Part shown: one piece after another, positions 1,493 to 10,765 of the stretch
Numbering within the stretch: the first letter of the stretch is position 1
How the letters are laid out: every line of letters begins with the position of its first letter
NCBI GenBank assembly: GCA_044892525.1
Contig: CM097888.1
Location: 24,490,001 to 24,554,000, forward strand
Length of the DNA: 64,000 bases
Direction of reading: 5' to 3'
From: Schmidtea polychroa
Lineage: Eukaryota
Notes under the pieces: generated by a model
What the model was told of the DNA's origin: nothing
Databases searched by the model: none
Seen by the model: the letters and a program-made list of their open reading frames with translations, nothing else
Program-made: the position numbers and the translations under genes

Positions 1493-1963
1493 CTACTCAA
1501 AGGTAGTATTTCGTTTCTCTTTGTCGGCTTCCTCGAATAAAGTTTCTAAATCGAAAAATTCGGAAGCGTTCTCTTCCTAAGTTGTGCCAGCAGCTGAGTT
1601 GACCCGACACTGCATCCCAGTATTTGCAGTTGACACGGGAGCAACGCTACTATTCGCCTGCCCAATGGGTGCGAAGCGCTTTTGTTCCTTTCCGGTAGCC
1701 CGCTCTTTCTGTTTTTTCTTACGCTCCGCTCGAGATAACTGTCAACGCTTGGGCTTTGATGATGGATTGCTGGTACAGAGTACCTTGGTTGTTGGGACAG
1801 CTTTGGGCTTCACCCTACTGGTGCCCGTGAAAACGACTTCATTGGAATTTGGCGAGAGTTCTGCCTCTACACACCCTTGACACGACTTCTCCGAGGTTCG
1901 GGGTTTATTCGGGGTTTGGTCATGATGGGTAGGAAACACATTATCTTCCTCGGTTATTGGTAT
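1493..1963 (-). pseudogene. Family X gene, 3' half (X2), with in-frame stops
   Basis: Reads IPITEEDNVFPTHH...EVVFTGTS...SRAERKKKQKER...EFFDLETLFEE. Homologous to IPLAEEDNLFPSHH, EVVCTGTS, SRAERTKRR and DFFDLDEIF in ORF 3197-3970. Confidence 0.85.
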
Positions 1964-2673
1964 TGTTGGGCTAGAACTGATTTCTAGACCCTAAACTATA
2001 ATTTGTGACTGGAATGCGTAGGTACATAGCACGCACAAAGCAAAAAGTACAGTTAAATATAAGAATACACCAAGTAAACAATATTAATTAAATGAGAAAA
2101 CAACAAAAATATAAACCCAGAAATTAAATAAAATAACACAAATGCAAGAAGTTGTGCAAAAATTTAACTCAAATATAGCAAAGAAACATAGAATTACAAA
2201 AAAACAGACTCGAATAGCTTAGAAAGATGGTAAAACATCGAAAAATTATAGAAAATCCCAGAAAATTTCATAAGAATGGCGAAAACCATCAGGGAAGCCA
2301 CATAAAACAATAAAGGTCATCAAAATAAATAAATTAGTAATAAAAATAAAAATTCTTAAAAAGAAATTCAGAGAACATCAATTAAAATAAAAAACTAAAT
2401 TAAAAGTAATATGGAATGGTCTGGAATCGTTCCAAATCCATCATGGAGGTAAAATTAGCAAAAAATTTTTAGAAAATAAAAAAATAAAAATTATGGCGCA
2501 AAAATCGCCATTAAAAATATCATAAATATAAAATTCTAGAATAAAAAGAATTCGAGTTTGTTTTAATGCATCAATACATACACGTGAACTTGCAGACGCA
2601 AAATAGGTATATATACCGACGCATTTTAGTCACAATTTAGACACTTTATGCCAAAAACATTTTTTCTTCGACA
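1964..2673 (+). promoter_or_regulatory. A-rich LTR-like module type 2 with palindromic TATA (GGTATATATACC, 2606-2617)
   Basis: Starts TGTTGGG. Reverse-complement homolog at 16035-16598; promoter-part homolog near 22840-22890. The 3' end is approximate. Confidence 0.55.
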
Positions 2674-2702
2674 CCAGAAAATTAATAGTAATGCTGGGTC
2701 TT

Positions 2703-2958
2703 GGGTCGGGTTGGAAAATATTTTCACATACCAGGGGATGATAGTCCTACACACGCACTCTGCATTCATCACACCAAGGAACCCTTGACCAAAATCCACA
2801 CGATCACACTCCGAACATGACACCCATGACTTGCATCATGTTGGTACTGTGTCATGTCGGCGAGCTAAGATGGAGCAGGTGAGCCCCTGCATTAGGACTA
2901 CTCCCCTACCGTAACCCGACTTACCCGACATTCGACTGCCGATAGAAGGGCTTACGTC
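2703..2958 (+). ncRNA. Conserved structured RNA-like element, copy A1
   Basis: Nested helices GGGTCGGGTT(2703-2712)/AACCCGACTT(2913-2922), TAGTCCT(2742-2748)/AGGACTA(2894-2900), ACATGACAC(2815-2823)/GTGTCATGT(2849-2857), CATGA/TCATG, GCAGG/CCTGC, and a 3' GAC-GCC-GATAGAA hairpin. Confidence 0.65.
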
Positions 2959-3196
2959 GTTCTCATCATCGTTTCGACCAGTAATCGACCTCTAATCAGT
3001 TTCACTCATTGGCCCTTTCTGGGTTTCATACACCACGGCACGTTCCGCATTCATTCGACTGTACAGGATACTTCCCATCTATTATTCTCATTTTATCGTT
3101 ACTCAGACTCACATTCCAACATTCATACTTCGCCATACATACGAGATAAAATAAATGAACAACGAAAAGAAATGAATTATTACAGCAAAATTTGAG

Positions 3197-3970
3197 TTAT
3201 AAATTCACACAGTATTCTAGTGTGTTCGGAGAGGTTCCGGCGAAGATCTCATCGAGATCGAAGAAATCTTTAGCGTTCTCCCATAAAGAATCAGTGGGCG
3301 GGACTACCCGGAAGACGGGGGAAGGACGCGAGGTGGACATTATTGTAGGAGTTGCTGCTAGTTGTGGAATAGAGGCGATCAACTTTGCTTCCCTTTCGGC
3401 CTGAAGAGCTCTTCTTCTCTTGGTACGCTCAGCCCTAGAAGGTTTCCGGCGTTTCTTTACTTTTTTCCCCTCTGTAGGAGTTACTGGAGCGGTTAAATCC
3501 ACTATCCTGGGGTCAGCATGACTTGTGCCAGTACAGACGACTTCGGGTGGAATTATCGGCTGGGAAATACCTGATTGGTTTGAGTGGACCTGGTTTGACG
3601 GCTTTATTGCTGAGATCCCAGAAAGATGGTGGGACGGGAATAAATTATCTTCCTCCGCGAGTGGAATGTTGACAATTTTCCGCGTGACCGACGCCTGTAT
3701 GAATACTCGATGTAACGCCTCAGACTGCTCCTTAATAAGAGTGCGTAACGCGCGATTTTCCTCCAGCACATCGTCCCTAAACTTTTCTACTCGAGTGAGT
3801 CTGGTTCTCACTTCCTTCATTTGACTTGGGGAGAAATATGTCCCCTCTAGGTGGTCAGTTTTCTTCTTGAGGAGGCCATTTTGAGTCTGGAGAGTTTGTA
3901 TGAGGAGATTTTTGTCTGCGCAAGAGAAGCAAGGTCGTAAAGTGGTAGTATGTGCAGGAGTTTTAGACAT
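3197..3970 (-). CDS. Family X protein X1 (257 aa): CxxC, coiled coil, EGTYFSP motif, Arg/Lys-rich segment, acidic-aromatic tail; unknown function
   Basis: Intact ORF, GC-richer than its flanks, with paralogs in the window. Splice acceptor TTTCAG lies 1 nt before the ATG. Confidence 0.8.
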   Translation of the reverse strand: MSKTPAHTTTLRPCFSCADKNLLIQTLQTQNGLLKKKTDHLEGTYFSPSQMKEVRTRLTRVEKFRDDVLEENRALRTLIKEQSEALHRVFIQASVTRKIVNIPLAEEDNLFPSHHLSGISAIKPSNQVHSNQSGISQPIIPPEVVCTGTSHADPRIVDLTAPVTPTEGKKVKKRRKPSRAERTKRRRALQAEREAKLIASIPQLAATPTIMSTSRPSPVFRVVPPTDSLWENAKDFFDLDEIFAGTSPNTLEYCVNL

Positions 3971-9321: not shown

Positions 9322-9687
9322 GTGAACCCACATCTACGTTGTGATCAATGACTATGACTTGTCCATTAATAGAAAACCGATTAGCATGCATCGACTTTGT
9401 TATTAAAATGTACAGTGTTCTATTATGTAATGTGATGGACGTCTTTTAATCGAGGTGTAAAGTATTACTCTTTATGTTTTGGTTGTCAATATTAATTTAA
9501 TTGTTTGTATTGCTTTATTTTTTGATAATTTTCCTTAACGTTGACTATTATTACCAACCCTATAAGGTTTTAGGTGCGCGCAGAGGAGGGCTGCGACGAG
9601 GAGATTATATTCATTTAGCGTTGATACTCATATTAATGCGCGAACACTCGATGATGATGTGAAAATTACTGATGTTGTCTTGTTTTA

Positions 9688-10149
9688 GTGCTAAAACTCC
9701 TGGAAGAGATGCGGACAGACAGAGAGCGGGCGCAACAACAAGCGGAGGAATACCGGGTCAAGTTGACTCGGATCAAAGCCCATTGCCGGAATTTCGAAAG
9801 TACTTGGTTCCCGCCGGCAGAAATGAATAAACAGATGAAGCTGATTGCTCAACTCCAACTCCAGAGTGCTCAGGACCAGGTTGAGTTGCGGGCTCTCCGT
9901 CTGAGGGTGAAGGAGCTGGAGACCAAGTTGTACCAACAAGACATCGATCGGGAGGTCATCTCCAAGATCCGACCCATGAGCGAACTGCTCCAGAGGCCGA
10001 AGGAGTACGTACCTTCGATTTCCCCCAGGAAGAAGATTCGGCCAGGCAAGGCTGCACGGGCCAAAATGAGACAAGCCAGCCTGGCCCAAACAACATTTCG
10101 ACCAACAGTACTAGAGCCTACCCCGAAAGAATCGGCCAAGACACCATAA
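9688..10149 (+). CDS. Divergent family X paralog X3 (first ATG 9709)
   Basis: FESTWFPPAEM aligns with LEGTYFSPSQM and LEGTWFTPKQM; coiled coil; KKIRPGKAARAKMRQA aligns with KKRRKPSRAERTKRRRA. Confidence 0.7.
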   Translation: MLKLLEEMRTDRERAQQQAEEYRVKLTRIKAHCRNFESTWFPPAEMNKQMKLIAQLQLQSAQDQVELRALRLRVKELETKLYQQDIDREVISKIRPMSELLQRPKEYVPSISPRKKIRPGKAARAKMRQASLAQTTFRPTVLEPTPKESAKTP

Positions 10150-10253
10150 ACTCTGATTTGTGTTTTCTGAATAAATTGTTACTGGTATATTAGCATCCGA
10201 GCATTCTGACTTTTCCATAATGTTAATTGACGTAAAGGGGACCTAAAGAAATC

Positions 10254-10390
10254 GGACATAAGCCTTCTATCGGCAGTCCGTGAACCCCAGTGGGTGCTAG
10301 ATAATTATAGTATGCTAAGCATGCTCACTTTTTGCTAGTACCCAAACCCTTGATACAGTACCAACGTTGATTGCTCAACGGGTATCAAGT
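10254..10390 (-). ncRNA. Conserved structured RNA-like element, divergent and truncated copy C
   Basis: Minus strand reads TTGATAC-CC-GTTGA-GCAA-TCAAC-G-TTGG-TACT-GTATCAA and GGAC-T-GCC-GATAGAA-GGC-TTAT-GTCC. Stems are fully re-paired with different sequence. Confidence 0.6.
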
Positions 10391-10462
10391 TGTCAGCTAT
10401 AAATTGTATTCTGGGTTACGCTGAAAACAGCATGAGGAGGTAGACATTTTGCATTACCTGTA

Positions 10463-10765
10463 ACCCACGATCTTTTGAGTCATCGACGCCTGCAGGTACA
10501 CTTTGTGTAGAGCTTCCGACTGCTCTTTGATGAGAAGGCGCTGCGATCGACTTTCAGCGATTAGACTATCGCGGCAATGTTCACTACGGAACAACTTCTT
10601 CTGTGTCTCTTTCATTTGCTTCGGGGTAAACCAAGTACCCTCCAGTTCGTCAATCTTTCGTTTGAGCATCCCGATTTGAACTTGTAAACTCTTAATGGCC
10701 GCGTTCTTGTTGGCACATGAGAAGCAAGGCTTGATCAAATTATTAGCATTGGAATTCATGGTCAC
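10463..10765 (-). pseudogene. Family X gene, 5' half (X4; ATG at 10759)
   Basis: KPCFSCANKN...LEGTWFTPKQMKE...KEQSEALHKVYLQASMTQKIVG. Homology to X1 stops abruptly at KIVG. Confidence 0.85.

Follow-up and report, generated by a model that had tools for sequence, protein, structure and literature searches.

The locus and its features

We analysed a window of 64,000 bp (C4:24,490,001-24,554,000) in the AT-rich, 781-Mb genome of the planarian Schmidtea polychroa; positions given without a chromosome label are counted from the first base of this window. Near its left end, a minus-strand open reading frame (ORF) of a family here named X is broken between 1963 and about 10466-10469, as judged by sequence comparison, and the inserted DNA opens with TGTTGGG, its first base being 1964. 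The broken ORF belongs to a long terminal repeat (LTR) of the X' subfamily, and the inserted units are LTRs of two types, P and X, of the same superfamily. Our reading, to which we assign a probability of roughly 0.85, is that an older LTR carries within its X ORF a P-type LTR holding an inverted X-type LTR, that all of these are likely solo LTRs, and that the right junction was likely trimmed at a microhomology. The features, with target-site duplications (TSDs) where present, are as follows.

974-1963, minus strand: 3' part of the host LTR, X' subfamily, 3' terminus at 974; 79-85% identity to the best uninterrupted copies
1960-1963, plus strand: GTAT, the 4-mer at the target; of the two TSD copies expected, only this one survives
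1964-2691, plus strand: 5' part of the inserted P-type LTR, starting with TGTTGGG; 91-93% to copies L057, L058, L060, L061 and L074
2692-6149, minus strand: nested X-type solo LTR of 3,458 bp, TGTTGGG start at 6149, CCCAGCA end at 2692
3197-3970, minus strand: ORF X1, inside the nested X-type LTR
6150-6160, plus strand: 11-base filler where a TSD copy is expected at the X-in-P junction
6161-10468, plus strand: remainder of the P-type LTR, 2 bases short of the normal terminus; 87-95% to relatives
8818-9321, plus strand: ORF Y, inside the P-type LTR, open in many copies
9709-10149, plus strand: ORF Z, inside the P-type LTR, a distant X homologue
10466-10468, plus strand: 3-base microhomology CAC between LTR end and host, found in the LTR end of relatives and at the host site of 8 of 11 in-frame relatives
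10469-11579, minus strand: continuation of the host LTR with the 5' half of the X ORF, ATG at 10759
11580-15005, plus strand: unit B, X-type and the third solo LTR to lie in this host; perfect TSD CTGG
15006-15694, minus strand: last recognisable upstream part of the host LTR; 75-87% to host relatives
16044-16598, minus strand: isolated 5' piece of another P-type LTR, without TSD; 84% to 1960-2505 and 87% to copy L076

A first-pass annotation of this DNA had described one X gene split by an insert of about 8.5 kb that starts exactly at TGTTGGG. This holds, the ORF being broken after 1963 and the insert running from 1964. The 3' half of the ORF sits in 974-1963, and its natural frame there has 2 in-frame stops. 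An origin of the halves from different X subfamilies was tested with searches and trees made separately for each half. The searches returned identical best relatives at abutting coordinates (for example C1:63,446,222 and 63,446,218), and in the trees both halves group with L191, L194, L197 and their neighbours, away from X1 and unit B. Two long branches in the right-half tree are copies with deletions, and the window's row in that tree has no starred small clade. Both halves belong to one interrupted locus. A fragment at 726-983 (minus strand) adjoins the host LTR 3' end at 974; its translation presumably represents actin.

The TGTTGGG units are LTRs of giant Gypsy-like elements

Both unit types run from TG to CA. 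Perfect 4-bp TSDs were present at 11 of 12 copies for P and, for X, at 16 of 18 (15 of 17 when only distinct copies are counted), 27 of 30 together, in a sample of copies with both ends in the fetched stretch (20 P and 20 X fetched) that favours intact ends. Genome-wide, we counted 903 exact P-type 3' ends and 56 exact ends of the nested X subtype, with none in the reversed controls, and a looser pattern identified 4,161 5' ends (reversed control 0). The P-type start comes after accessory ORFs in all five BIR-containing regions, and three of the six regions that were extended contain pairs of P-type LTRs with 99.3-100% identity and a 4-bp TSD. A full-length P-type element lies at C1:18,856,159-18,890,366 (34.2 kb, with an ORF of 4,688 aa). 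In one of two regions an X-type LTR pair was found as well (C1:198,718,594-198,748,417, 29.8 kb), its LTRs 99.8% identical, with a TSD and with X in both LTRs. Pfam domains in the full-length elements comprise CCHC, MATH, viral fusion protein, protease (PR), reverse transcriptase (RT), RNase H (RH), integrase (IN) and ankyrin, and the Gypsy order PR-RT-RH-IN is present in both.

A primer site complementary to tRNA-Pro(TGG) begins 7-8 bases past the 5' LTR end and matches the genome's tRNA-Pro(TGG) genes over 15 encoded bases. It follows 45 X-type ends (control 0), and an X homologue is present in 18 of the 20 that were examined. The TGTTGGG units are therefore LTRs of 3.4-5.5 kb (TG...CA, 4-bp TSD) of Burro-like Gypsy elements of 30-34 kb, and the TGTTGGG end at 1964, which is an LTR start, is the genuine integration junction that the first-pass annotation had proposed. 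The closest link from the insert to complete elements is L070, which is 91% identical to the insert's 5' part and has internal sequence on both sides. Most of the LTRs are solo: none of 60 3' ends share a flank, and 2 of 30 5' ends come after the pre-LTR motif.

Same-strand P-end pairs 30-35 kb apart at C3:20.0 Mb, C1:26.7 Mb and C1:43.4 Mb were considered and are not LTR pairs, and neither the region upstream of L087 nor that at C1:115.0 Mb yielded an intact internal part. L070 itself (C2:152.48-152.51 Mb), a tandem or recombined element, adjoins a 1,023-bp tandem array of a 333-aa ORF. A long tandem array of tRNA-Pro(TGG) genes with 475-bp spacing occupies L322 (C1:130.90-130.95 Mb), with 2,186 pattern matches genome-wide. 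Host-like gene fragments lie inside or beside P-type LTR copies at L068 (within the P LTR), L067 and L069; we take these fragments to include a piece of a Rab-type GTPase and a piece of a complex I subunit.

Anatomy of the insert

The 8.5-kb insert is one P-type solo LTR (1964-10468) that holds an inverted X-type LTR (2692-6149). In five close relatives the equivalent of 1964-2691 joins that of 6161-10468 directly, to give a P unit of about 5.1-5.5 kb, and the nested X-type LTR is colinear with free copies at 89-95%. The filler at the X-in-P junction is absent from the five closest P relatives and resembles sequence 14 bases downstream (9 of 11 matches at 6164). The nested LTR landed in the word GTAAG (2688-2691 plus 6161), which is kept in most P copies and could be a splice donor.

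Unit B interrupts the same host: host relatives continue from 11579 straight to 15006 without it. Upstream of 15006-15694, the host LTR's own 5' end was not found. The stretch 15695-16598, where that end is missing, contains the P-type 5' piece without TSD and may be chimeric LTR sequence or the outcome of a deletion that ran from one LTR to another.

The right junction

Past the equivalent of 10459, 10 of the 11 relatives of the insert share a fixed LTR end, which closes in CA and gives way to unrelated flanks. The window matches this LTR end up to 10468 and then switches to host sequence. The element thus reaches its canonical end minus only the terminal CA, in place of the probably rearranged end near 10459 that had been described. 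GTAA at 10460-10463, which had been taken with GTAT as at best an imperfect TSD, recurs in the conserved LTR end of 10 of 11 relatives and is therefore not a TSD. The first-pass annotation had further joined the two ORF halves without a gap as GTG GGT/ATA CCA. That join does not survive comparison with uninterrupted host relatives: in 11 of 13, 6 bases separate the counterparts of 1963 and 10469, and in 8 of these 11 the last three are CAC. At this place the 11 in-frame relatives have N (6), T (4) or S (1) as residue, never G; the codon for G (10463-10465) comes from the LTR. The host is thus three bases short, and its frame agrees across the join by coincidence.

The right junction has thus lost three bases of the host, its copy of the TSD and the CA that should close the LTR. 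All of this could have gone in one step, by a deletion of about 12 bp that ran from one copy of the 3-base word CAC to the other, and a small microhomology repair deletion of this kind is the likeliest cause of the trimmed junction.

Nesting frequencies

Three LTR insertions occupy this one host LTR: P, the X-type LTR nested within P, and unit B. To place this in context, we took copies irrespective of the sequence around them and examined their 106 distinct junction flanks. Six of these flanks match the LTR library, four of the six with at least two library sequences. Among random 200-base pieces the corresponding counts were 48 and 23 of 1,960 (1.2-2.4%), giving one-sided Fisher p values of 0.055 (6 vs 48/1,960) and 0.046 (4 vs 23/1,960); because the pieces overlap, come from only 20 regions and sample LTRs that cluster, these values overstate significance. 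Measured against an LTR share of 2.4% of the genome (4,161 LTR starts of about 4.5 kb), p is 0.04 for six flanks and 0.25 for four. An earlier nesting background of 0.5-0.7%, from a small library, was too low and was replaced by the larger-library count.

An inner LTR end was found in 0 of 29 whole copies vs 0.7 expected, a count that left out over-long copies as well as L059 and L094, which contain an inner LTR and do not have both ends in view. L059, L094 and L041 are further nested cases. Target choice is only loosely sequence-biased. Of 107 LTR 3' ends, 2 are followed by GTAT, and the most frequent base at position 3 of the target is A (69/107). The proposal that the family inserts into itself holds for single events, of which this host has three, but does not describe a general habit: 100 of the 106 flanks lie outside any LTR. 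Insert and target do share a superfamily, as had been suggested; the insert, however, is of a different subfamily (P) and carries a second nested LTR. These counts hardly point to self-insertion as a preference, and the pile-up of LTRs is most likely the product of chance and of tolerance of insertions in dead repeats.

Order of events and alternative explanations

Identity to the nearest relatives is 78-91% for the host segments, 93-95% for P, 94-95% for the nested X-type LTR and 83-85% for unit B, which fits the order host, then P, then nested X. An old X'-type element would first have been reduced to a solo LTR. A P-type element may then have integrated at GTAT in this X' LTR by means of its own integrase, making a 4-bp TSD, after which recombination between its two LTRs would have removed the internal region. 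An X-type element would have repeated the same course inside the P LTR, and unit B likewise in the host. The microhomology deletion would have trimmed the right junction of P.

Several observations weigh against this reading. Among the full-length elements none belongs to the insert's own 95% subfamily; those recovered represent sister subfamilies, with 78-83% identity to the insert's ends (P DNA) and 42% for the X protein. No classical polypurine tract was seen before the 3' LTRs, where both types have a conserved non-purine motif instead. Two of the three nested insertions here have no clean TSD, although most sampled copies have one. On these identities unit B is not clearly younger than the host, and LTR divergence misorders some nested pairs in the cases described in PMC7251063. 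The short-read contigs that bridge the right junction come from one study, which is possibly the assembly's own source. Nesting exceeds the backgrounds used by a factor of 1.6 to 3 (p 0.04-0.25), so a weak preference is possible. A later deletion and a faulty one-ended integration look alike in sequence and cannot be told apart on that basis.

The last point bears on an origin of the right junction at integration itself, in which the left end was joined by integrase and the other by host microhomology repair, so that no TSD was ever made. Aberrant retroviral integrations do have one normal end, one slightly truncated end and a small host deletion (PMC5041404), although those described there were induced by drugs or mutation, and here such an event is inseparable from a later deletion. 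The X-in-P junction likewise has one normal side and one filler side. Literature searches that combined several terms returned no paper on microhomology at the LTR ends of aberrantly integrated proviruses and none on illegitimate recombination. Integration in these families, however, is normally two-ended, to judge from the TSD sample, and an insertion about 5-7% from its relatives is old enough to have acquired small deletions; we regard a one-ended origin as possible but rather unlikely. The first-pass annotation had placed the left breakpoint at the first base of a terminal inverted repeat (TIR) of a "unit A" (1964-6149), which would make the units DNA transposons with X as their gene, one copy inserted in another. 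The breakpoint is indeed an element start, but that of an LTR. A 13-bp inverted repeat does link 1964 with 6149. In relatives, however, 1964-2691 runs into 6161-10468, and in 20 X-type loci it never adjoins the X unit; the repeat therefore joins two different elements, being two LTR starts that face each other, and 2692-6149 is separate and in opposite orientation. The units also occur as direct-repeat pairs around gag-pol and X has no transposase match in Pfam. Unit A as a TIR element is rejected, and the transposon account in general retains very little plausibility.

Equally hard to credit is an arrangement produced by misassembly among repeats. The region is one of high-copy repeats, the read check covered the right junction, and no bridging contig was seen for runs X5 and X6 among the 32 of 2,496 pieces listed. 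Contigs from runs X1 and X3 (124 and 106 bases), however, cross this junction without a difference, and the two ORF halves abut within 3 bases on their relatives, which a mis-join would not give. A different question is whether the integrase prefers LTRs of its own superfamily, so that the three nested insertions reflect active self-targeting. The three LTRs in one host, the 4-6 flanks in LTRs and the further nested cases speak for this. The large majority of flanks outside LTRs, the lack of inner LTR ends in whole copies and the dependence of p on the background chosen (0.04 or 0.25 on the genome share; overlapping pieces from few regions otherwise) speak against it; in addition, unrelated elements interrupt these LTRs too, and the window was picked after the fact. 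We consider active self-targeting improbable. Quite improbable, in our judgement, is a variant in which the giant elements are mildly steered into their own older LTRs, perhaps via the X/Z protein, and often integrate at one end only, with repair scars. We retain nested, likely solo LTRs with one junction likely trimmed.

ORFs and a conserved motif in the LTRs

X is present in both LTRs of a gag-pol element and Y and Z lie inside the P-type LTR; the three ORFs are therefore LTR-borne. Between copies, X, Y and Z all have ratios of nonsynonymous to synonymous substitution (dN/dS) well below 1, the pairs not being independent of one another. Median pairwise values are 0.14-0.45 for Y (aa 1-110, 19 copies), and dN/dS for Z is 0.10-0.54 (aa 1-100, 30 copies). 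Z and X1 are 24% identical over 116 aa (pairwise E 1.6e-5). Within the genome at least 148 relatives of X1 were scored. Outside it, none of 567 candidates passed, and a search of X against 1.84 billion representatives gave only one weak, low-complexity match (E 7e-5). Atlas scores were no higher than 0.81. In Pfam, X has only sub-threshold coiled-coil matches.

All subfamilies share a conserved motif about 100-250 bases away from the 3' end of the LTR (1103-1245, 2815-2961, 14732-14881 and 10235-10432 in the window). A search of Rfam with this motif returned no match, with one chance-level match elsewhere (E 0.97), and a ribozyme or known RNA was accordingly rejected. Contig depth is very high over 10228-10447.

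Other features of the window

An open frame at 20822-21859 (plus strand) contains VWA and UIM domains and is presumably related to the proteasome subunit Rpn10/S5a. A 766-bp stretch at 35695-36460 has the ends TGTTGGG...CCCAACA, no TSD and no match in the LTR library. Fragments of other mobile elements occupy 33400-39400 and 45365-51139 and comprise protease- and integrase-like frames, a transposase-like pair, RT/RNase H and CCHC.

Relation to known elements and significance

Burro/GYPSM1 are giant Gypsy-like LTR retroelements of planarians, described in PMC6431247. The elements studied here resemble them in length (about 30-34 kb), in multi-kb LTRs and in thousands of copies. They also share a single polyprotein of about 4,700 aa with a CCHC Gag, MATH, an in-frame viral fusion protein, PR-RT-RH-IN and ankyrin, as well as BIR and RING/TRAF accessory ORFs. 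An env-like fusion protein between gag and protease, together with MATH, BIR, ankyrin and RING cargo, is present here. The likeness is one of layout and domains, the named Burro families having been compared by description and not by sequence. Section 7 of PMC6431247, unlike our account, makes no mention of LTR ORFs, solo LTRs, TSD length or primer. The BCL2-, SUMO- and dUTPase-like motifs of Burro had no Pfam match here at E <= 0.01; PMC6431247 relied in part on HHpred. We found nothing on Burro solo LTRs in Schmidtea in a literature search of main texts, whose supplements may describe LTR features, and the passages on Burro in PMC8532177 and PMC11410931 add nothing on LTR structure.

As with the solo LTRs from unequal recombination discussed in PMC7251063, single LTRs lie here between TSDs and far outnumber ends with internal sequence, although the LTRs in this genome are 3.4-5.5 kb long and carry conserved ORFs, unlike those. 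The nesting recalls the "autoinsertions" of LTR retrotransposons in PMC6911290, in which Gypsy elements lie inside older copies of their own or related families. That account concerns plants and finds LTRs rarely targeted, whereas the targets here are solo LTRs in an animal genome.

The stack consists of ordinary nested solo LTRs from a type of element already known, and one of its junctions is trimmed; as such it matters little, being one more nested LTR stack in a repeat-rich animal genome. Its value is in part corrective: the TGTTGGG units are LTRs, whose true ends, TSD length and primer are now fixed. A relative order of subfamilies is also gained (X', then P, then nested X). Of more interest is the side fact that these LTRs carry ORFs under purifying selection without detectable relatives. 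If the elements were steered into their own older LTRs, this would represent a self-nesting strategy that spares host genes in an animal Gypsy lineage. The evidence for self-targeting is weak; were it real, it would bear on how giant retroelements can persist in a host without harming it.

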